A stretch of DNA of 64,000 nucleotides from the NCBI GenBank assembly GCA_024683775.1, contig GCA_024683775.1_4106.1; one strand, 5' to 3'. The DNA is from a phage. Under the pieces are notes generated by a model. That model was not told where the DNA came from and ran no database searches. It worked only from the letters and a program-made list of their open reading frames with translations. Made by a program: the position numbers and the translations under genes. Of the stretch, positions 19,918 to 30,409 are shown in pieces (within the stretch, counting starts at the first letter, position 1; each line of letters opens with the position of its first letter).

Positions 19918-21045
19918 TCAAAAAGGTAAATCAATTTGCTTAGTAATAATAGTATCTAACGGTATTGAACACAATGAGAAATTCTTTCCACCCGTATTTT
20001 CAGGATTATATCCATTCATCCATACATTATTACCTTCGTAAAATGTATTCCAGTATAAAGACCCACTATATCGTGTATTCGAATTGAACGATGTAAAATT
20101 GAATTCTTGAAATGCTGTAAAATATGGAAGGGAACTTGAACTACTTCCCGTAAATGGGGTATGCCCAGTTGCTATTAGTTTGTTTGTATCTGCATTAATT
20201 AAAAATACAACACTAGTCGAATAGTCCAACGAATCAGGATGATATATATTACTCATATCACCTATAGTAAAACCAACATCAAAAACTTTACTATGTGCAC
20301 CACTACCAGCAAAAGTAGTTCCAGTTGCATATATTTTATTATCAGATGTTATCATTACAAAACCAACACCAGAAACAAAACTGCATTTTATATCATAAGA
20401 TATATCATCAAACAACGGAACAAATGTGGTTGCATCACCCGATGTTGCTTTAACTTGAAAGCTGTTATTTGAACCTGAACCATATACAGTTCCATCGTTT
20501 TTAATCTTAAACAATGTATCGCCAAGGTAACCGCCAAATATATTATCCACATTAGTGTCAAGTACAGTCCACGCTGAAACATAATTTTTATGTCCTAAAC
20601 CTAATGTACCACTTCGATTCCATCCTCTTCCATAAAGTGTTCCGTCTTTCATTAATATAAATGCTGTATAACCACATAACATTTTTTTAATTTGGGTAAC
20701 ATCTATACCAGTGAAATACACAGCCCAGTCAGTATATCCTTGTTGGAAAGTATTAGAATTCGTGAATGCATATGTTGAACCTGAACCATATATTTTATCA
20801 CCTTTAATAACAACGGAAAACGATCCTAACCATAAGTCATCAACTTCAGTTGTGATTTGTTGAACTGCTCCTAACGATACAAACTGTGTACTTAAACCCG
20901 CATTATAGTTTGAATCTTCACCGTGTGCATATACAGTGCCATCTTGCATTAGAAACATTTCAAGAGTGTAACTAACAACACTTTTCTTTATATTATTAAC
21001 TTCGATTATATTCCCATAATCAAACATTCTAACAAAAGGTAACAT
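19918..21045 (-). CDS. RCC1-like beta-propeller repeat protein, array member 16
   Basis: 375-aa ORF; N-term MLPFVRMFDYGN. Confidence 0.85.
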   Translation of the reverse strand: MLPFVRMFDYGNIIEVNNIKKSVVSYTLEMFLMQDGTVYAHGEDSNYNAGLSTQFVSLGAVQQITTEVDDLWLGSFSVVIKGDKIYGSGSTYAFTNSNTFQQGYTDWAVYFTGIDVTQIKKMLCGYTAFILMKDGTLYGRGWNRSGTLGLGHKNYVSAWTVLDTNVDNIFGGYLGDTLFKIKNDGTVYGSGSNNSFQVKATSGDATTFVPLFDDISYDIKCSFVSGVGFVMITSDNKIYATGTTFAGSGAHSKVFDVGFTIGDMSNIYHPDSLDYSTSVVFLINADTNKLIATGHTPFTGSSSSSLPYFTAFQEFNFTSFNSNTRYSGSLYWNTFYEGNNVWMNGYNPENTGGKNFSLCSIPLDTIITKQIDLPF

Positions 21046-21087
21046 AATTCCCTCCTTTATTCATTATACTATATTTAATCAAAAAAA

Positions 21088-21106
21088 GCCAGTATCAAGT
21101 ACTGGC
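21088..21106. terminator. hairpin terminator (array cassette)
   Basis: GCCAGTATCAAGTACTGGC. Confidence 0.55.
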
Positions 21107-21114
21107 ATATTAAT

Positions 21115-22263
21115 TTACTGCACAAATGACATATCGACTTCGGTATAATTAAGAACGTTCTGTCCAGCACTACCACCCATTACTACAAATGAAGCACCCG
21201 AATAATATAACTTCGAAGTGTCAGTAAGTATAAGTGAACCAGATGGAGTGCGTACCAAATTACACGAAGTATTAAACGAAGTATATGAAGGAGTATAGGA
21301 GTACTGATTATTATTATTACCAACACCTAATTGCCCAAACCTATTCGATCCAGAAGCATATAGAACTTCATCTGCTTTGACAATATGTGATGCCATGTTA
21401 CCAACACAAGTATATAGAGTATAAACTCCTGAACTCAATAATGTCGGAGTTTTATATTGTATATCAGTAGAAGAGGAAGTACCACCTGTACCAAATTCGT
21501 TCCCATATTGTGCACCGAACTGTTTACCACAAGCGTACAAATTATTATCCGATTTGATAAAAAATGTACTCTGATAACTTACATTAAAATCTATAACATC
21601 CGAAGAAATCATCGTCACCCCAGTAATAGAAGTTTGATTGCCCGTGCCCAACTGGTAGTAATAGTTAAAACCACAACCCCATAAAGTATTATCTTCTCGC
21701 AAATAAATGTTACCAACAGCCTTTTTAACCGAAGTTATAGTATCTACTCTTTTGAATGTGTTAAAAGAATTAATGTTTGTGCCATCACCAAATGATGATA
21801 TGTTCGATATATTGTTAGCTCCACAACAATACAATGTACCATCGTTTGTTATCAAATTCACCTTCATATCATAAAAACTACTCATGTATTTTATATCAGA
21901 AACATTAATACCACTTGATGTTATCCACGTAGTACAGTCCGTCCACAAAGTTTTTCTATCAGTTACACCAGTGAATGCCTTCGTGTTACCAGTGATAAAA
22001 ACTTTTCCAGTACCTTTCTCTTCATACAATTGACAATCACTACTGTTATCTTCCAATAGAACTCGTTTAACATTCTCCGCACAAAGAATAAATTTACTCG
22101 ATGCTACACCTGTACCAGTACCCCAATTCGTCGCAGAAGATGCATACAACTTGTCAGTATAAGTATCATGAAGATACATAGAATCACTGGAATATATTTT
22201 ATAACGACCAGAGTTGGTAGGAGCTTCATTTCCATAATCAAACATTCTTACAAAAGGTAACAT
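21115..22263 (-). CDS. RCC1-like beta-propeller repeat protein, array member 17
   Basis: Start at conserved MLPFVRMFDYGN (22263), SD GGGAGGGAAT; repeats YYQLGTGNQ. Confidence 0.85.
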   Translation of the reverse strand: MLPFVRMFDYGNEAPTNSGRYKIYSSDSMYLHDTYTDKLYASSATNWGTGTGVASSKFILCAENVKRVLLEDNSSDCQLYEEKGTGKVFITGNTKAFTGVTDRKTLWTDCTTWITSSGINVSDIKYMSSFYDMKVNLITNDGTLYCCGANNISNISSFGDGTNINSFNTFKRVDTITSVKKAVGNIYLREDNTLWGCGFNYYYQLGTGNQTSITGVTMISSDVIDFNVSYQSTFFIKSDNNLYACGKQFGAQYGNEFGTGGTSSSTDIQYKTPTLLSSGVYTLYTCVGNMASHIVKADEVLYASGSNRFGQLGVGNNNNQYSYTPSYTSFNTSCNLVRTPSGSLILTDTSKLYYSGASFVVMGGSAGQNVLNYTEVDMSFVQ

Positions 22264-23520: not shown

Positions 23521-23549
23521 TTGACACCCTTTCAGTACTGATGTACTAT
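23521..23549 (+). promoter_or_regulatory. sigma70-like promoter driving the small-gene array (divergent from RCC1 array)
   Basis: TTGACA (23521-26), 17-bp spacer, TACTAT (23544-49); AAGGAG SD at 23561; ATG 23575. Confidence 0.5.
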
Positions 23550-23574: not shown

Positions 23575-23802
23575 ATGACAAATACTTTTAAGTACTACCT
23601 CAATACTCTAAATGAACTAGAGTACGCGAAGTTTCTCGCGGATAGTTCGTGGCTAATTGAGCTAAAAACACATAACAGTACTGGATGTAACCTTATGCTG
23701 AACAATGCACTTGATACCCTTGTAGTGAGTATTTTACACAGCACCATCTGCGGGGATAGCAATAAACAATTATCAAAAATCTTAGTACTGGTAGCTCTAT
23801 GA
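23575..23802 (+). CDS. small hypothetical protein (75 aa), first gene of small-gene array
   Basis: ORF with AAGGAG SD; downstream genes overlap or abut. Confidence 0.6.
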   Translation: MTNTFKYYLNTLNELEYAKFLADSSWLIELKTHNSTGCNLMLNNALDTLVVSILHSTICGDSNKQLSKILVLVAL

Positions 23803-24011
23803 ACACTATGAACATTGAACAGTACTACATTGATGCACTACCAACAAAAGGTCTACGAGAAAGCCTACTGTATACACAAAATAATTATATAAACTTCAAA
23901 CATTGTCCTAAACTCTTGAACTCGTACAGGAATAATAAAATAAGAAATGCTGTACAAGGGGTAGAAAGTATGCAATACTATTACATCCTAACCCTTTTAA
24001 TCGAGCACTAA
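23799..24011 (+). CDS. small hypothetical protein (70 aa); paralog of 24210
   Basis: ATGA start/stop overlap; N-term MNTMNIEQYYIDALP similar to 24210 MKTMNIHQYYLDILP. Confidence 0.6.
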   Translation: MNTMNIEQYYIDALPTKGLRESLLYTQNNYINFKHCPKLLNSYRNNKIRNAVQGVESMQYYYILTLLIEH

Positions 24012-24012
24012 T

Positions 24013-24198
24013 ATGTATAAAGAATTCTACTGTAGTAAGCTGCACAAACAATACAGAGATTCATTTCCCAATGAACCTATGGATATGAATAGTCCCTTTT
24101 ATAAATTTGACTTCAGACTGGAGACACGTTATGCAATAGAACATCAATTTCCTGAAACTAAGTACTTATCTATCATGAACCTCATCTTTAAGTTCTAA
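24013..24198 (+). CDS. small hypothetical protein (61 aa)
   Basis: ORF 1 nt after previous stop; N-term MYKEFY. Confidence 0.55.
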   Translation: MYKEFYCSKLHKQYRDSFPNEPMDMNSPFYKFDFRLETRYAIEHQFPETKYLSIMNLIFKF

Positions 24199-24209
24199 AA
24201 GAGTACTAT

Positions 24210-24422
24210 ATGAAAACTATGAACATACACCAGTACTACTTAGATATTCTCCCTAAAGATGTACAGTTCATCCTTAAACAAGAATACAGTACTTTAAAAA
24301 ACCTTAAAAGAACCGCACCGAATGTATTAATCCTGCACCAAGAAAATGTAGTTGATAATATTCTACAAGGTGTACCAGGGACCGAGTACTTTAACATAAT
24401 AAGGCTAATTACATTACCATGA
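24210..24422 (+). CDS. small hypothetical protein (70 aa); paralog of 23799
   Basis: Sequence similarity to 23799 ORF. Confidence 0.6.
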   Translation: MKTMNIHQYYLDILPKDVQFILKQEYSTLKNLKRTAPNVLILHQENVVDNILQGVPGTEYFNIIRLITLP

Positions 24423-24604
24423 ATCATATATTATACTATTACCAAAATCTATCCGACAGGGACAAGTACACCCACAACTCCAATGTATGGTACTACAAAC
24501 GCGGTAGTATAAGAGACAAACAACATTACTTCTGTATTGCTATAAAAGAAGCACTAACAACTAAGTACACGTACAGAGCAGTACTGAAACTTATTGATAT
24601 GTAA
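24419..24604 (+). CDS. small hypothetical protein, C-terminus YRAVLKLIDM (subfamily A)
   Basis: ATGA overlap with previous gene; conserved C-terminal motif. Confidence 0.6.
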   Translation: MNHILYYYQNLSDRDKYTHNSNVWYYKRGSIRDKQHYFCIAIKEALTTKYTYRAVLKLIDM

Positions 24605-24614
24605 AGAGAATACT

Positions 24615-24797
24615 ATGAGCATTGAATTGTACTTAAGTAAATTACAGCCTGGCGATAGATTCATCTACAATAAGTTCGAATTCAACTACAAGAACGGGAG
24701 CAACAAATATCGTCGAGGATACCTATATACAAGCACAAGAGATGCACAAAACGAAAAGTACACATACAGAGAAGTACTTAAACTAATCTCTATTTGA
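24615..24797 (+). CDS. small hypothetical protein, C-terminus YTYREVLKLISI (subfamily A)
   Basis: Start moved to ATG 24615 (tracked ORF begins at TTG); conserved C-terminus. Confidence 0.6.
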   Translation: MSIELYLSKLQPGDRFIYNKFEFNYKNGSNKYRRGYLYTSTRDAQNEKYTYREVLKLISI

Positions 24798-24805
24798 GGT
24801 AATAT

Positions 24806-24991
24806 ATGAATACATTTGAGTACTATACAAATAAACTATCTATGCCTGAAAGATCTCATCTCTATGTGTGGAGAAATGCGTATAAAAGCGGCAATAAACT
24901 TATACAAAGAAATTCCCTTACAGTGTGTACAAATTTAATTAAAGCAGAGTACCGCACATATATTGAAGTACTCAAACTGATAGCAATATAA
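24806..24991 (+). CDS. small hypothetical protein, C-terminus YIEVLKLIAI (subfamily A)
   Basis: 61-aa ORF; conserved C-terminus. Confidence 0.6.
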   Translation: MNTFEYYTNKLSMPERSHLYVWRNAYKSGNKLIQRNSLTVCTNLIKAEYRTYIEVLKLIAI

Positions 24992-24999
24992 GGTACTCT

Positions 25000-25179
25000 A
25001 TGCAAGAATTCTATATCTATAACCTCCAGCACAAAGATAGATACAACTATAATAAATTCCAAAGGTACTACACAGTCGGGAACAAAAGAGATAAAAAACG
25101 TTATCTACTCTCGTGTACAGTAGAAGCACAAAACGAAAAGTACACGTACAGAGAAGTACTTAAACTAATCTTAATCTAA
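25000..25179 (+). CDS. small hypothetical protein (59 aa), C-terminus YTYREVLKLILI (subfamily A)
   Basis: ORF below the 60-aa track cutoff, found by reading the sequence (ATG 25000, TAA 25177-79). Confidence 0.55.
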   Translation: MQEFYIYNLQHKDRYNYNKFQRYYTVGNKRDKKRYLLSCTVEAQNEKYTYREVLKLILI

Positions 25180-25186
25180 GGTAGAC

Positions 25187-25375
25187 ATGAACACTTTTGA
25201 GTACTACTTCAATAAACTAAACCACATAGAACAAAGTATGCACAACTCATTTATTCAGCACCATCAATCATCTGCACATGGAATTAAAAATATATCGATT
25301 GAGATTATCACTACCCGTGTACTGTCATCTGAACGTTATATGTATATTGATGTACTGAAACTCATCTCTATGTAA
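25187..25375 (+). CDS. small hypothetical protein, C-terminus YIDVLKLISM (subfamily A)
   Basis: 62-aa ORF; conserved C-terminus. Confidence 0.6.
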   Translation: MNTFEYYFNKLNHIEQSMHNSFIQHHQSSAHGIKNISIEIITTRVLSSERYMYIDVLKLISM

Positions 25376-25383
25376 GGAATAAT

Positions 25384-25563
25384 ATGCAAGAATACTATAT
25401 AGAACACATAAGCATTAAAGACCGTTTCATGTACGACACCTTCGTGAAGTACTACAACCTGGCAACTAATAGTACTAAAAATATTAATCTCAATAGCTGC
25501 ATTCATCACGCACTAACAAAAGATAATCCCTTCAGGGAAATCCTCGCTCTCGCATCTGTATAA
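25384..25563 (+). CDS. small hypothetical protein (59 aa), MQEYYIEH..
   Basis: ORF below track cutoff found by reading (ATG 25384, TAA 25561-63); N-terminus resembles 25000 ORF. Confidence 0.5.
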   Translation: MQEYYIEHISIKDRFMYDTFVKYYNLATNSTKNINLNSCIHHALTKDNPFREILALASV

Positions 25564-25574
25564 AGGAAAACCAA

Positions 25575-26234
25575 ATGAAACTTAATGCACACAGCAAACA
25601 ATACCTTAAGCACTTTAAATACCTCAACAGTATTCAAGCAGAATCTTTTACACCAGCATATACGTATCACCCAAATGTACTAAAGAAACGAAATAAAAAG
25701 AAAAAATCCAGAAATGTTCTCGTATCTAAGAACCTCAAATCGTACTTGAAGAAAAATAGTATAGCTCTTGCTTTTATTAATATCTATAATACTGATTTAA
25801 AAGTATTGAGTACTAATACCAGCACAAAAGCACTAAAGAATGCATCTATCTATATACACATTGATAATATCCCGTGCACTATAATTCTATCTTTCGGGAA
25901 TGTATACTTCTTCGGGAATTGTAATAGCACCCATGATATCAGTACTGCACAATTCCAAATCGGCGATATGTACTGCATGGGTTCAGAAAAAATACACGAT
26001 AACATGCACTTCTTCCAAAAGCAACGTACTAACGAAACTGATACAGTACTGCAATTCCTCAAAGAACTAGAACACAAAGAATTATCCGAGGAAGAAGAAT
26101 TCATGTACAGTACTGTAATCGATAATCCAGGACTCTATAAAAACGCGTACAAACTAACAAAACATGTACAGGAACTTATCAGTACTGATAAGAAATTTCA
26201 TCACCTCATTACGTATATTTCAAACTATGTATAA
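25575..26234 (+). CDS. hypothetical protein (219 aa), lysine-rich N-terminal region, C-terminal EEEEFMYSTVIDNP motif (EE-FQ family outlier)
   Basis: ORF with SD AAAGGAAAA; motif shared with 2164 and the 55.6-64 kb family. Confidence 0.65.
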   Translation: MKLNAHSKQYLKHFKYLNSIQAESFTPAYTYHPNVLKKRNKKKKSRNVLVSKNLKSYLKKNSIALAFINIYNTDLKVLSTNTSTKALKNASIYIHIDNIPCTIILSFGNVYFFGNCNSTHDISTAQFQIGDMYCMGSEKIHDNMHFFQKQRTNETDTVLQFLKELEHKELSEEEEFMYSTVIDNPGLYKNAYKLTKHVQELISTDKKFHHLITYISNYV

Positions 26235-26409
26235 AGAATACTACAAAGATAAAATCCCAATGCATCTACAACACCATATACCAAACGTTGCATTGGGTAT
26301 CAAAGATCACGCAAAGATAATGTTCCAACAATGTACTAAGTACACGCTCATATACGATGATAATCCATATATGCTGTACTACGTAGTAATGCTAACATTC
26401 AGGTACTAA
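26227..26409 (+). CDS. small hypothetical protein, MYKEYY... C-term LTFRY (subfamily B)
   Basis: Start at ATG 26227 overlapping previous stop; family N- and C-terminal motifs. Confidence 0.55.
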   Translation: MYKEYYKDKIPMHLQHHIPNVALGIKDHAKIMFQQCTKYTLIYDDNPYMLYYVVMLTFRY

Positions 26410-26410
26410 T

Positions 26411-26590
26411 ATGAATACTTATAAAGAATTCTACCTCTCGTACCTTAATTCCGATATAGTAACATCCAATACATTCAGTACTAAAATTATCTATAATGAA
26501 GTAATGAAAGAATGTATTAAAGGTGCTATTAACCCTAAAGATACGTATGACTTGTACTATGCAGTACTAACCCTTGTTTTCACGAAATAA
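26411..26590 (+). CDS. small hypothetical protein (59 aa), MNTYKEFY.. (subfamily B)
   Basis: ORF below track cutoff found by reading (ATG 26411, TAA 26588-90). Confidence 0.5.
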   Translation: MNTYKEFYLSYLNSDIVTSNTFSTKIIYNEVMKECIKGAINPKDTYDLYYAVLTLVFTK

Positions 26591-26598
26591 CACATAAT

Positions 26599-26790
26599 AT
26601 GAATAACCACAAAGAATACTACATAGAGAAACTCCCAATGTATCTCCAACACCTTGTACCAACAAAACAATTGAGTATAGAAAAAGACTACGAAAAAGAC
26701 TATTTCATTAAGTGCACTAAATCCTCGATAGATATTGAGGACTATAATAGAGTACTGTATCACATCCTTTTACTAATATATAAGTACTAA
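26599..26790 (+). CDS. small hypothetical protein, MNNHKEYY... LLIYKY (subfamily B)
   Basis: 63-aa ORF with family motifs. Confidence 0.6.
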   Translation: MNNHKEYYIEKLPMYLQHLVPTKQLSIEKDYEKDYFIKCTKSSIDIEDYNRVLYHILLLIYKY

Positions 26791-26791
26791 T

Positions 26792-26980
26792 ATGAATAAC
26801 CACAAAGAATACTACACACAATTTCTCCCCAGTATATTTGAACACTACGCCAGATATAAAGTCCCCCTGGATAACGATTTGGCAGTACTGGGATTCAATA
26901 ACTGCATAGAACGAAGTATAGAAAATAGTAGTAGCTATGACCAGCTATATAACACTATCCTACTTATATTCAGGTACTAA
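26792..26980 (+). CDS. small hypothetical protein, MNNHKEYY... LLIFRY (subfamily B)
   Basis: 62-aa ORF with family motifs. Confidence 0.6.
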   Translation: MNNHKEYYTQFLPSIFEHYARYKVPLDNDLAVLGFNNCIERSIENSSSYDQLYNTILLIFRY

Positions 26981-26981
26981 T

Positions 26982-27170
26982 ATGCATAAAGAATACTACA
27001 CAAAATATTTCCCAATGTACCTCAGTACTAATCTATTAGATAAACCTCGCGGTATCAATGCTCAAAACGATAAAGTGTACTTTACTATGTGCACTAAAGC
27101 ATGTATACTAGATTTTGATAGCTATCATCGAGTACTGTATCATACACTGTACCTAGCTTTCGTGTACTAA
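26982..27170 (+). CDS. small hypothetical protein, MHKEYY... LAFVY (subfamily B)
   Basis: Start at ATG 26982 right after previous stop (tracked ORF extends upstream into previous gene). Confidence 0.6.
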   Translation: MHKEYYTKYFPMYLSTNLLDKPRGINAQNDKVYFTMCTKACILDFDSYHRVLYHTLYLAFVY

Positions 27171-27180
27171 AGAGGCCAAT

Positions 27181-27387
27181 ATGAACGAACAGAAAGAATT
27201 TTACACCAAACACCTCAGTGCATCAGAACAAATGTTTCTAAGGAGTGTATCACCTTTAAGTTTAGATACACCACACGCCAGAGATTGCTTTAATAATTGT
27301 ATACGTATTACTCTAGAAGCTTTAGAAAACAATAACAAAAATATTCAATACTCAGGCGTAATGGGACTAATATTCTTCTATGAATAA
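27181..27387 (+). CDS. small hypothetical protein, MNEQKEFY.. (subfamily B); paralog of 27761
   Basis: 68-aa ORF; HLSASEQMFLRS vs HLSPTEQMFLRT in 27761. Confidence 0.6.
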   Translation: MNEQKEFYTKHLSASEQMFLRSVSPLSLDTPHARDCFNNCIRITLEALENNNKNIQYSGVMGLIFFYE

Positions 27388-27568
27388 CAAAGAATTCTAC
27401 TTAAACCATCTGGAACTAAACTCCCAAATGCTTATACCACTAAACCCAATAGATATCAAGGATAAGAAAAATACCAAACAATTCCACTACCACACACTAT
27501 GTGCTATCAACCCAGATTATAATACATATAAACTGTACTACATTCTCGCCCTAATATATAGGTACTGA
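27380..27568 (+). CDS. small hypothetical protein, MNNKEFY... LIYRY (subfamily B)
   Basis: 62-aa ORF overlapping previous by 8 nt. Confidence 0.6.
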   Translation: MNNKEFYLNHLELNSQMLIPLNPIDIKDKKNTKQFHYHTLCAINPDYNTYKLYYILALIYRY

Positions 27569-27569
27569 T

Positions 27570-27755
27570 ATGCATAGAGAATACTATATACAATTTGTTA
27601 AAGGGAACTACAAACACGCCGTCCCCGTAAACCCCTTAAATTCTAATGACCCAAGTACTATATTCTTGTTCCATGACGCAATACGTACAGTACTCAATAC
27701 TAAAGATGAACAGGTGCAGTACGTATTCTTACTATTACTTATATACAGACACTAA
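27570..27755 (+). CDS. small hypothetical protein, MHREYY... LIYRH (subfamily B)
   Basis: 61-aa ORF. Confidence 0.6.
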   Translation: MHREYYIQFVKGNYKHAVPVNPLNSNDPSTIFLFHDAIRTVLNTKDEQVQYVFLLLLIYRH

Positions 27756-27760
27756 CTAAT

Positions 27761-27970
27761 ATGAATAAAGAACATAAAGAATTCTATTCCAAACACCTCA
27801 GCCCCACAGAACAAATGTTTCTAAGGACTACTGCACCTTTAAGTACTGATACTTATTTCGGCAGAGTATGCTACAATAATTGTATTCAAATGACTTTAAA
27901 CGCAAACGACAATAATAACAGTACTAATATGTACTCCGGCATCATAGGTATACTATTCCTATATGAATAA
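27761..27970 (+). CDS. small hypothetical protein, MNKEHKEFY.. (subfamily B)
   Basis: 69-aa ORF; paralog of 27181. Confidence 0.6.
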   Translation: MNKEHKEFYSKHLSPTEQMFLRTTAPLSTDTYFGRVCYNNCIQMTLNANDNNNSTNMYSGIIGILFLYE

Positions 27971-28154
27971 AGAACATAAAGATTTCTATATAAGTAAACT
28001 AAAAGAAAACGAACAAGCATGGGTTAACAATTTAATCCCCCTGGCAATGACTCAATACGAATTTAATATGTGTACAAAGATTGTTTTAACTACTAATGAT
28101 ATCTCTAATACGTACTACTTCCTATTAAGAGTACTATATGGTACTTTGAAATAA
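27963..28154 (+). CDS. small hypothetical protein, MNKEHKDFY.. (subfamily B)
   Basis: 63-aa ORF. Confidence 0.6.
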   Translation: MNKEHKDFYISKLKENEQAWVNNLIPLAMTQYEFNMCTKIVLTTNDISNTYYFLLRVLYGTLK

Positions 28155-28165
28155 TAAGGTATACT

Positions 28166-28372
28166 ATGCAGAACATAAAAAACTATAAAGAGTACTATAT
28201 AAGTAAACTACCACCGACTGACCAAGCATGGATTAGATCTATAATAGTACTGGCATTTAATAGATATGCATTTAACAGATGTACCGAGATTGCTATAGAC
28301 CCTTATAATATTAAAGAGAATGTACAGCATAATCAGTACTACTATATGTTAATGCTTATATATAGGAAGTAA
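28166..28372 (+). CDS. small hypothetical protein, ...KEYY... LIYRK (subfamily B), last of array
   Basis: 68-aa ORF. Confidence 0.6.
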   Translation: MQNIKNYKEYYISKLPPTDQAWIRSIIVLAFNRYAFNRCTEIAIDPYNIKENVQHNQYYYMLMLIYRK

Positions 28373-28497
28373 TTCAACATATAGACAGGGGAAGCTCCGC
28401 AGGGAAAGCATTGGACAGGCTTTAACAATTAGAAGAATTGTTAAAATTCAGCCTGGACAAATGCGATCACTAGGATTCTCCCCAGGCTAAACCCCGT

Positions 28498-28570
28498 AAT
28501 CATATGTAGTCATAAGTAATCATATATAAACATTTAAGTAATCATTTATAATCACTACTGTGATTAGTAT
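28498..28570. repeat. iteron-like short direct repeats (GTAATCAT units)
   Basis: AAGTAATCAT repeated at least 3 times within ~60 bp, in a region with no ORFs. Confidence 0.4.
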
Positions 28571-29399
28571 TGAGTACTAGAGTGTAATAGAGTACAGGAA
28601 TGTGCTCGTTTAATCAAGAACGTAGCAGTACTGCCCCAAAAGTATTCAGTACTGAAGGTGTCGATATGCCACTAAGTAGGCAGAGGAAGTCTGCCGTACT
28701 TTGTAGTTTCCAAGCTCCTTTTCCATTTTGCAAATTACATCAAATGTAATCAAAAGTAATCACGCAATGATTAGTACTGAATTATTACTTTCACCTTAAT
28801 TTCAATTACCCTTTTACCCTTCGGGGTAAAATTCAATTACCCCTTGAGGCTCCAGCAAAAAGTTGGTTAGTACTCCATCCTAAATCTCGATCCTAAAAAT
28901 TTTGGAGTACCTATGAAATAAAAGTTGGATCTTCGAAAGTTGAAATTTACGTTGGGACGTTTATGATTTGTGGGATATAATGATGTTTGTAGTCGGGTAG
29001 TTCTCAAGAATATCAGTACTGAATGGTGAAAGAAAGTTATTGACATTATGATTCAGTACTGTATAATGTTCTACATAGGGTGATGAGTTGCTGCGAACAA
29101 TTCATTTACTCTACCTCCTGTCGTGAGACAGTACAGAAAAGATAGTTCCTCCTGTGGTGGTACATCTTTTTGAACCTCATATGAAAATCGTAATAACAGT
29201 ACTGATATTAACAGAATGGTATCAGTACTGATTTTAATCTAAAGCATTATGCCACCAGCACAAGCTGGTGGATTCCCTCTAACAGTATTCAGTACTACAT
29301 GATAGTCTTCATCCTCCTAGGGTAACATAGTGAGGGCTATGATGGCAGTACTGAATACTCCCTTTCAAAAGATAGATCTATGGTATAGTACTGACGGAT

Positions 29400-29590
29400 T
29401 TTGGGTGTAGTTACCCTGGATGGATTTTGGGCGTAGATATGTCTAGCCCTCCAGAAGTCTGGAAGTAAAGATGGCTATCCATCTAGACGGCTAAACGGCT
29501 AGATTTCTGGATGGCTGGATGGCTAGACGTTTGGACGGCTAAACTGCTAGATGGTTACACGTCTGGAAGTATAGACGGCTAAATCAAAAT
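29400..29590. repeat. cluster of short direct repeats (GGATTTTGGG[TC]GTAG; ACGGCTAAA; GGCTAGA; TCTGGAAGTA)
   Basis: Multiple 7-15 bp units repeated 2-4 times each; non-coding context. Confidence 0.5.
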
Positions 29591-30201
29591 TTTATTTTGT
29601 TTTTTCCAATAGTTCCCCTACCGCGTGGGGATAGTTTCCCCGCAGTATCTGGCGTTAGATTTTTCTGAATCTGGAATCATTATCTTATAAACTGGGGGCA
29701 ATGTCAACGACCTGGACGGATATTTTTAAAAATTTTTTCAGTACTGAATTTTGGGCGTAACTATGCACCCGGTGGGCTTGAGTCTTTCTCGACTTGATGG
29801 AACTATTATACAGTACTGAAAAAATAAAGCAATACCCTGGAAGCAAAAAAGTTTTAATTAATTTGCTTGCTATCCTGGGCCGGACTATGGTACTATATTT
29901 CAGTACTGAGAAAGTGCGTTTACCTGCTAGGGTGCGGGAGTGTATCCTTTTTTTATATCTTGAATTTTGGGCGGATCTTCCCACCCCCTGGGGTATCCGC
30001 TTTCTCGCGTCTATGTAGTAATTATACGCTTTTTCAGGATCAAGTCAATACCTAAAAACAAAATAATTGAAAATAATTTAACGCGTTTAAACGGCCTGTA
30101 AAGCCCTGGAATGATTGGAATGGTGCAAATGTATAGCTTATGTGTATTAATGCGTTAGAATGCGTCTGAGGCCGTTTTACGGGGTATAGGGATGATTTAG
30201 T

Positions 30202-30355
30202 GGATTGATTCAGTACTGAATAATAGTACTCCTATATAGAAAGATAGTTCCCCTGGATTGATTCAGTACTGAATAATAGTACTCCTATATAGAAAGATAG
30301 TTCCCCTGGATTGATTCAGTACTGAATAATAGTTCCCCTATATAGAAAGAAAACT
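30202..30355. repeat. three tandem direct repeats of 53 bp
   Basis: Unit GGATTGATTCAGTACTGAATAATAGTACTCCTATATAGAAAGATAGTTCCCCT at 30202, 30255 and (degenerate) 30308. Confidence 0.8.
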
Positions 30356-30381
30356 ATTTTAAAAGTATTTGTAGAAAGTAC

Positions 30382-30409
30382 TTGCACCGTACTGATAAAA
30401 GCGTATAAT
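30382..30409 (+). promoter_or_regulatory. early promoter (conserved type)
   Basis: AGTACTTGCAC -35-like (TTGCAC 30382-87), 16-bp spacer, TATAAT 30404-09, then GTTTTACATC start region. Confidence 0.65.

Follow-up and report, generated by a model that had tools for sequence, protein, structure and literature searches.

Organization of the small-gene array

The DNA analysed here is a stretch of 64,000 nucleotides (nt) of a phage genome (GenBank assembly GCA_024683775.1, contig GCA_024683775.1_4106.1), hereafter the window, to which all coordinates refer. It shares 99% identity with Escherichia phage EC.P1 and is a member of the genus Asteriusvirus, the PBECO4/121Q/phAPEC6 group of jumbo myophages with genomes of about 350 kb. 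Positions 23575 to 28372 are tiled by 22 head-to-tail genes on the + strand, 21 of them small (59-75 amino acids, aa) and one of 219 aa, with an overall coding coverage of 97.9%. An earlier note on this DNA had counted 22 tandem small genes; the array stands, with the count corrected to 21, since the 22nd member is the 219-aa gene. The head-to-tail order and the tiny or overlapping spacers that it described were found at every one of the 21 junctions, all within -8 to +11 nt (ATGA-type overlaps, TAATATG). The 219-aa gene separates the tenth small gene from the eleventh, and this is also the boundary between two subfamilies, A and B. Internal ATG starts were adopted for the genes at 24615, 26227 and 26982, for which mechanical open reading frame (ORF) calls begin further upstream. 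A family hidden Markov model (HMM) scan detected no further member elsewhere in the window. The features of the locus are:

23521-23549, + strand: sigma70-type promoter, TTGACA-N17-TACTAT, with AGTACT in the spacer, followed by a strong Shine-Dalgarno (SD) sequence
23575-23802, + strand: small gene 1, 75 aa, divergent family member, its group matched to the 23799/24210 group by profile comparison (hhalign, 97%)
23799-24011, + strand: small gene 2, 70 aa, 23799/24210 group
24013-24198, + strand: small gene 3, 61 aa, B-type although upstream of subfamily A (B-family HMM, E 3.6e-10; phrog_11711, E 2e-15)
24210-24422, + strand: small gene 4, 70 aa, 23799/24210 group
24419-25563, + strand: small genes 5-10, subfamily A, 59-62 aa, basic (24419-24604, 24615-24797, 24806-24991, 25000-25179, 25187-25375, 25384-25563)
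25575-26234, + strand: 219-aa gene, phrog_29152, at the A/B boundary
26227-28372, + strand: small genes 11-21, subfamily B (phrog_11711), 59-69 aa; genes 11-15 at 26227-26409, 26411-26590, 26599-26790, 26792-26980 and 26982-27170; genes 16-21 at 27181-27387, 27380-27568, 27570-27755, 27761-27970, 27963-28154 and 28166-28372
27115-27143, + strand: candidate internal promoter by consensus match, TTGATA-N17-TATCAT, with AGTACTG abutting the -10
28675-28695, no strand assigned: start of the direct terminal repeat (DTR), the physical genome end in phage vB_Ec-M-J as annotated, with the GC-rich hairpin GGCAGAGGAAGTCTGCC first

Predicted anti-SD pairing is stronger at the 22 starts (mean -3.6 kcal/mol) than at 80 other ATGs of the region (-0.8), and the first gene has the SD AAGGAG with a duplex of -9.3 kcal/mol. 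At several junctions of subfamily B the terminal R-Y-stop codons (AGG TAC TAA) provide the AGG of the next gene's ribosome-binding site. The hexamers of the promoter at 23521-23549 are conserved in the 10 closer genomes of 12, with a variable spacer; the two divergent genomes, JNE01 and Turkey5, are out of register in this alignment. No convincing terminator was found inside the array. These features suggest that the array is a single operon of 4.9 kb in which translation is coupled from gene to gene. The candidate promoter at 27115-27143 lies within the C-terminal codons of gene 26982-27170 (repeat family D18) and is laid out like the early promoters in the terminal repeat described below. 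As in the spacer of the promoter at 23521-23549, AGTACT is present in 20 of the 46 promoter-like sites found from 23 to 51 kb.

Over 24001-28000 the array has a negative GC skew (-0.15 to -0.22) and a strongly positive AT skew (+0.18 to +0.20), and the GC skew does not become positive until about 28 kb, at the start of the terminal repeat. The skew of the array is probably a product of its Y/N/H/T/L-rich and G/A/V/D/E-poor composition.

Relatedness and predicted fold of the small proteins

The best paralogue score of each small protein lies between 25 and 89 bits, whereas 630 composition-preserving shuffles peak at 23.9 bits. As every protein scores above all shuffles, the relatedness is not an effect of composition. 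The subfamilies proposed in the earlier note, A (24419-25563) and B (26227-28372), proved to be real, as did their motifs: ...Y-T-Y-R-E-V-L-K-L-I in A, and M-N-x-H-K-E-[YF]-Y ... L-I-[YF]-R-Y in B. Profile-profile comparison with hhalign, which took in all unique members from 12 genomes, gave 93% (E 3e-7) for A against B, 93% for B against the 23799/24210 group, and 97% for the group of 23575 against the 23799/24210 group. This chain of 93-97% matches, with 24013 as a B member, makes the first four genes part of the same superfamily and not a separate set. On these comparisons, the 21 small genes are a single superfamily of common ancestry. The pairs 23799/24210 and 27181/27761, formerly called close duplicates, are mutual best matches but old, with 37% aa identity in the first pair and 59% aa (72% nt) identity in the second.

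In subfamily B, compared over 103 unique sequences, conservation is seen at H4, K5, E6, Y/F7, Y8, L12, F36, C39, I/L44, Y54, L57, L59, I60 and Y63, with the C-terminal motif Y-x-x-L-x-L-I-[FY]-[RK]-Y. Positions 14-35, 41-43 and 45-52 are variable, with an entropy of 2.5-3.7 bits. The pattern of subfamily B is that of a constant scaffold with a diversified remainder. The small proteins are rich in tyrosine (10.3% Y) and range in isoelectric point (pI) from 5.5 to 9.6; subfamily A is basic (pI 9.4-9.6, net charge +5 to +6), and most B members are neutral or acidic (pI 5.5-8.8). No transmembrane segment was found in the 21 small proteins, in which the 19-residue Kyte-Doolittle maximum is 1.23 and stays below 1.0 in 20 of 21, and the proteins are predicted to be soluble.

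An AlphaFold model of the product of 26599-26790, built from an alignment of the 21 paralogues alone, has four helices and a predicted local distance difference test score (pLDDT) of 91.6. A fold search with this four-helix model retrieved no relatives in the PDB, nor among viral models outside the family. Pfam gave no usable match in a scan covering nine operon proteins (listed as the 219-aa protein and seven small ones), an NCBIfam scan of all 21 small proteins gave no match, and searches of PDB sequences yielded no usable match for the small proteins or the 219-aa protein. The statement of the earlier note that function cannot be read from the sequence therefore holds.

Three familiar classes of small protein were considered and rejected. 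The proteins have 0-2 cysteines each, with only C39 semi-conserved (65% in B), and are not zinc ribbons. A small DNA-binding regulator of the helix-turn-helix (HTH) type, Cro- or Aca-like, was rejected for want of an HTH match in the Pfam and NCBIfam scans or in the fold search, and a small membrane protein (holin, superinfection-exclusion or spanin-like) on the Kyte-Doolittle maximum.

Cassette turnover and selection

The synteny of the locus is constant in 12 Asteriusvirus genomes: RCC1-like genes on the - strand, the small array on the + strand with a gene of about 220 aa in its middle, and a gene-free stretch of about 2 kb. The small-gene set itself turns over. Copy number varies from 15 to 22 per genome, with differing order, and the members form 52 clusters at 65% identity, whose cassettes are present, absent or relocated in a patchwork. 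For instance, the orthologue of 27181 (cassette '16') lies between the second and third genes in six genomes, and far downstream instead in the window, WPEC5, BF17 and TH47. By this comparison, few parts of these genomes are as plastic as this locus.

The clearest single event is seen in WPEC5, which lacks exactly one unit relative to the window (26227-26590 region). Its crossover lies inside TATAAAGAAT (10 bp), which two neighbouring genes share in their first codons (M-Y-K-E-[YF]-Y), and the resulting hybrid gene, at 5725-5898 of the WPEC5 stretch, is intact and in frame, a direct demonstration that unequal recombination inside the array yields intact chimeric genes. Other alignment breakpoints also fall at or near start codons (24019, 26227-26243, 27204, 27389, 27976-28002). 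The junctions themselves are repeats, consisting of C-terminal codons, ribosome site and N-terminal codons over 45-61 nt at 60-87% identity.

All 12 genomes retain intact reading frames and a conserved geometry of start and ribosome-binding site. The ratio of nonsynonymous to synonymous polymorphism (pN/pS), pooled over orthologues from the 12 genomes, is 0.36 (0.05-1.1 per cluster; the pairs are not independent). Retained genes are thus constrained as proteins while the gene set turns over, and the retained copies, judged by this ratio, are under purifying selection. Since paralogues share at most 59% identity, the array shows no sign of an ongoing 'accordion' burst.

Distribution and database status

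The small-protein family was found in 36 phage records, all of Escherichia or Salmonella Asteriusvirus types. A word-indexed search of 5.8 billion proteins returned 46 clusters, in which every named source is an Asteriusvirus-type phage of these records, and an exhaustive profile search of 1.84 billion representatives returned only 31 proteins, 41-75 aa long and all of the same kind, with no distant relatives. Metagenome contigs with a divergent member show the same synteny and are not a new lineage. Within the databases searched, the family is confined to one phage genus.

Twelve of the 21 proteins (subfamily B and 24013) match phrog_11711, with a best E of 1.9e-27; this PHROG is annotated without function and spans only part of the superfamily found here, as the other nine (subfamily A and the first, second and fourth genes) match no PHROG. 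The same genes have been deposited, without names, in the 36 phage records, as hypothetical proteins of Asteriusvirus (121Q gp249-265, phAPEC6 gp540c-548c, PBECO4). Literature searches yielded no published description of the array and no Asteriusvirus transcriptome.

Homologues of the 219-aa gene are likewise confined to the genus, with 65-98% identity among those in the databases. The gene is present in all 12 genomes examined and full-length in 11; it is cut to 137 aa in Salmonella phage SD-2_S15 (6581-6994 of its stretch), and a truncated form of 120 aa is on record from SD-6_S16. The AlphaFold model of its product is unusable (pLDDT 39.5).

Terminal repeat and AGTACT palindrome

The DTR of vB_Ec-M-J (1..21525, depositors' annotation) maps to 28675-49555 of the window, so that the window comes from an assembly in which the repeat is collapsed or internal. 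For UE-S1, another member of the group, long T5-type terminal repeats were reported by a second study. From the end of the array at 28372 it is 303 bp to the right-hand copy of the repeat. On the + strand the DTR carries 12 perfect TTGACA-16/17-TATAAT promoters and many near-perfect ones, in two recurring layouts, TTGACA-N9-AGTACTG-TATAAT and AAAAGTACTTGCAA-N16-TATAAT.

The stretch 28373-30407, which spans the DTR start, is about 2 kb long, has no ORF above 100 aa and is unannotated in most relatives. It contains a hairpin located precisely at the terminus (28676-28695), strong promoters in both orientations, an 8/16-bp periodic repeat of GGATGGCTAGACGG type (29453-29580) and three tandem 53-bp units (30201-30359), and is probably a genome-end or packaging-related region. 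Rfam found no RNA family anywhere in the window.

Array and terminal repeat are both rich in the palindrome AGTACT. The window holds 254 copies, against about 20 expected from base composition, and the array and the repeat show a roughly 20-fold enrichment. There are 7-10 copies per kb between 23.5 and about 50 kb (dense range 23471-49555) and about 2.4 per kb in the RCC1-like array, and much of 50-64 kb is nearly devoid of the motif. Its most frequent form is CAGTACTG (56 sites), and TCAGTACTGA is also common. Many early promoters have the motif abutting the -10 or overlapping the -35. The 11 other genomes, with the divergent JNE01 clade among them, show an equal density, and the sites are conserved above background (119 of 131, against 92 expected). 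In the array genes the motif occurs in all three frames; of 54 peptide contexts able to accommodate it, 35 use it, where codon usage predicts 9.9. For the genes of the terminal repeat the figures are 56 of 86 against a predicted 10.5. This excess indicates that AGTACT is maintained by synonymous codon choice. Being common to both, it also places the array in the same regulatory or physical DNA domain as the repeat, and its selection over the terminal 26 kb or so points to an unrecognised DNA-level control system. SlmA-binding sites were considered and rejected: the SlmA site is the 12-mer GTGAGTACTCAC, with G...C directly flanking AGTACT (PMC3020112), and none of the 254 copies has such G/C flanks.

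Selection on AGTACT inside the genes, and its conservation between genomes, raise the question of whether the ORFs matter as proteins. The region could be kept for a role at the DNA level beside the genome end, as an AGTACT-rich terminal domain or as a buffer for recombination or packaging, with the cassettes as tolerated duplicates; that individual cassettes are dispensable across genomes would agree with this. We consider it highly improbable, given the pooled pN/pS, the frames and start geometry preserved in 12 genomes, and the confident fold prediction obtained from covariation among paralogues. Moreover, the strongest motif of subfamily B (AAAGAATACTAC, K-E-Y-Y) is without AGTACT.

If the proteins do matter, their place within the AGTACT-rich domain, and the fixed positions of the motif in early promoters, could mean that they act on the DNA or transcription of the phage itself. 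They would then be nucleoid-type or promoter-binding factors for this domain, which switch early promoters off or on, or organise the genome end. The basic character of subfamily A fits such a role, and for the expansion of a small domain to about 35 copies in phage G, Iyer et al. proposed roles as transcription factors or structural DNA-binding proteins (PMC7824862). Most B members, however, are neutral or acidic, neither HTH, zinc ribbon nor another DNA-binding fold or domain was recovered, and one palindromic site does not require 21 diversified binders. A DNA-binding role for the family is therefore, in our view, unlikely.

RCC1-like genes

On the other side of the array, 18 tandem paralogues of RCC1-like beta-propeller proteins (264-449 aa, 22-51% mutual identity) occupy 962-23470 on the - strand. 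The paralogue at 19918-21045 has near-identical counterparts in vB_Ec-M-J (100%) and CMSTMSU (97.6%) alone; in EJP2 the match is 63%. About 95 nt upstream of the genes starting at 5112, 7722, 11371, 19846, 21045 and 22299 (- strand) lies a recurring intergenic module composed of a hairpin terminator with an AGTACT stem (GCCAGTACT-nn-AGTACTGGC and a T-run), followed by ATTAAATATAGTATAAT and GGAG. The ATTAAATATAGTATAAT element, which differs from the sigma70-like promoter of the array, is possibly a middle or late promoter.

In every genome examined, the RCC1-like and small arrays stand back to back over a control region of 104 bp, and both families vary in content between phages. In addition, at least two RCC1-like proteins are in the virion of phAPEC6. 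A case can thus be made that the small proteins serve the 18 RCC1-like paralogues as partners, whether chaperones, adaptors or regulators, and diversify together with them. The two families nevertheless differ in their promoters, with sigma70-like -35/-10 elements on one side and a hairpin terminator and ATTAAATATAGTATAAT on the other. Their copy numbers are not one to one, phAPEC6 carrying 18 small genes and having been reported with eleven RCC1-like proteins; copy counts of RCC1-like genes by tblastn are uninformative against small-gene counts, given the strong divergence of the paralogues. Jumbo phages of Salmonella, Klebsiella, Yersinia and Erwinia have RCC1-like paralogues as well, and the other genera that bear them are not among the 36 records with the small family, at BLAST sensitivity only. 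The small proteins were also not found in the virion. Overall, a partnership seems to us quite unlikely.

Jumbo phages often package many small proteins, and the array adjoins a physical terminus. The small proteins could accordingly be internal to the virion or co-injected with the DNA end. The published virion proteome of phAPEC6 (62 proteins) includes the RCC1-like gp549 and gp551 and none of the small gp540c-gp548c, though a protein of 4.66 kDa was detected in it, and the promoter preceding the array is of host type and not of late type. A place in the virion is very improbable on this evidence.

Proposed role of the array

The explanation that we favour, with middling confidence, is that the array is an early, coupled operon of diversified binders for host interaction or counter-defence, reshuffled by recombination; the function is inferred. 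Host sigma70 RNA polymerase would transcribe the operon from 23521-23549, presumably early in infection, towards the adjacent right-hand terminal repeat with its consensus host-type early promoters. Coupled translation would then give 21 soluble proteins of about 7 kDa, predicted to fold into four helices, and one protein of 25 kDa. Each small protein may be a binder tuned to a different host protein or variant of a host defence, serving takeover or counter-defence; the hydrophobic core and H-K-E-[YF]-Y kept by all members, with variable loop and helix positions between them, suggest such a repertoire. Homologous recombination in the cassette junctions would add, delete, move and fuse whole cassettes in frame between phages.

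Several observations weigh against this explanation. No similarity to known anti-defence or host-takeover proteins was found, with no dedicated anti-defence library searched. With pN/pS below 1, diversifying selection is not directly indicated, and paralogue identities of 20-59% show that the duplications are old. The array genes are not inside the DTR but 303 bp outside it, and their promoter matches the consensus at 10 of 12 positions, compared with 12 of 12 in the promoters of the repeat. The absence of the small proteins from the virion proteome is weak evidence at 7 kDa.

The earlier note had likened the array to loci under pressure from an arms race between host and virus. Part of that reading survives: the plasticity is there (15-22 copies, 52 clusters), as are breakpoints at the cassette junctions, and small size, turnover, a host-type promoter and a position by the early terminal repeat fit accessory genes for host interaction. 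Positive selection and a recent burst do not appear in the data, and they point to no particular target in the host or its defences. The earlier note also lacked the context given by the boundary of the terminal repeat, the single operon, the RCC1-like array and the AGTACT signal.

Jumbo phages carry mostly genes without a known function, and the way in which such genomes grow is still under debate. The locus offers an example, at the level of sequence, of a small-protein expansion of about 20 copies with exact in-frame swapping of cassettes and a fixed place at a terminal-repeat boundary. If a role in host takeover or anti-defence is true, the 52 or more clusters would be a ready library of small binders on a new scaffold, and the content of the array could help to explain differences in host range among Asteriusvirus therapy candidates.

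Comparison with known systems

Blocks of host-takeover or pre-early genes are associated with long terminal repeats in other phages, as in the terminal-redundancy module of Bacillus phage SPO1 and the pre-early region of T5. In CBB, a related Rak2-like phage, short ORFs preceded by clusters of RpoD-like promoters were taken for early genes of host takeover (PMC5259590). The present locus shares with these blocks the many short ORFs without assigned function, promoters of predicted host sigma70 type and a genome end by or in a long repeat. They are, however, mixtures of unrelated genes, mostly with their own strong promoters, whereas here one paralogous family forms one coupled operon behind a single moderate promoter, 303 bp outside the repeat, with no sequence or fold similarity to them.

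Another parallel is Bacillus phage G, with about 35 copies of a zinc ribbon in a lineage-specific expansion (Iyer et al. 2021, PMC7824862); in phAPEC6, tandem duplication has been noted as a way of reaching jumbo genome size (PMC7247149). Both phage G and the present phages have tens of copies of one small domain in one jumbo-phage lineage, but the domain is a zinc ribbon in phage G and an all-helical predicted fold without PDB relatives here. With anti-CRISPR and anti-defence clusters and the hyperplastic regions of T4-type phages, the array has in common small accessory genes of fast turnover in a narrow phage group. It differs from the anti-CRISPR and anti-defence clusters in that no Aca-like HTH regulator was detected in the Pfam and NCBIfam scans and all members are paralogues.

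Among viruses of eukaryotes, the multigene families of African swine fever virus (ASFV) and the terminal host-range families or 'genomic accordions' of poxviruses are near-terminal multigene families. There too, tandem paralogues lie near the ends of linear double-stranded DNA and vary in copy number and content between isolates by unequal or homologous recombination. Here the virus is bacterial, the proteins are much smaller and the genes form an operon. The likeness is one of genome architecture; the array shows no sign of recent amplification, and a host-range role would be hypothetical. It is possible, though doubtful, that the array is the phage counterpart of these terminal families. It would then be a set of shuffled counter-defence or host-range binders on a previously unseen four-helix scaffold of about 60 residues, co-regulated with the early genes of the terminal repeat through an AGTACT-marked terminal domain of about 26 kb, with the junctions as a device for in-frame exchange between co-infecting phages. 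Lineage-specific expansion of accessory genes in phages is a known type, and the present array is a case of it with a fold without known relatives and unusually clean cassettes.

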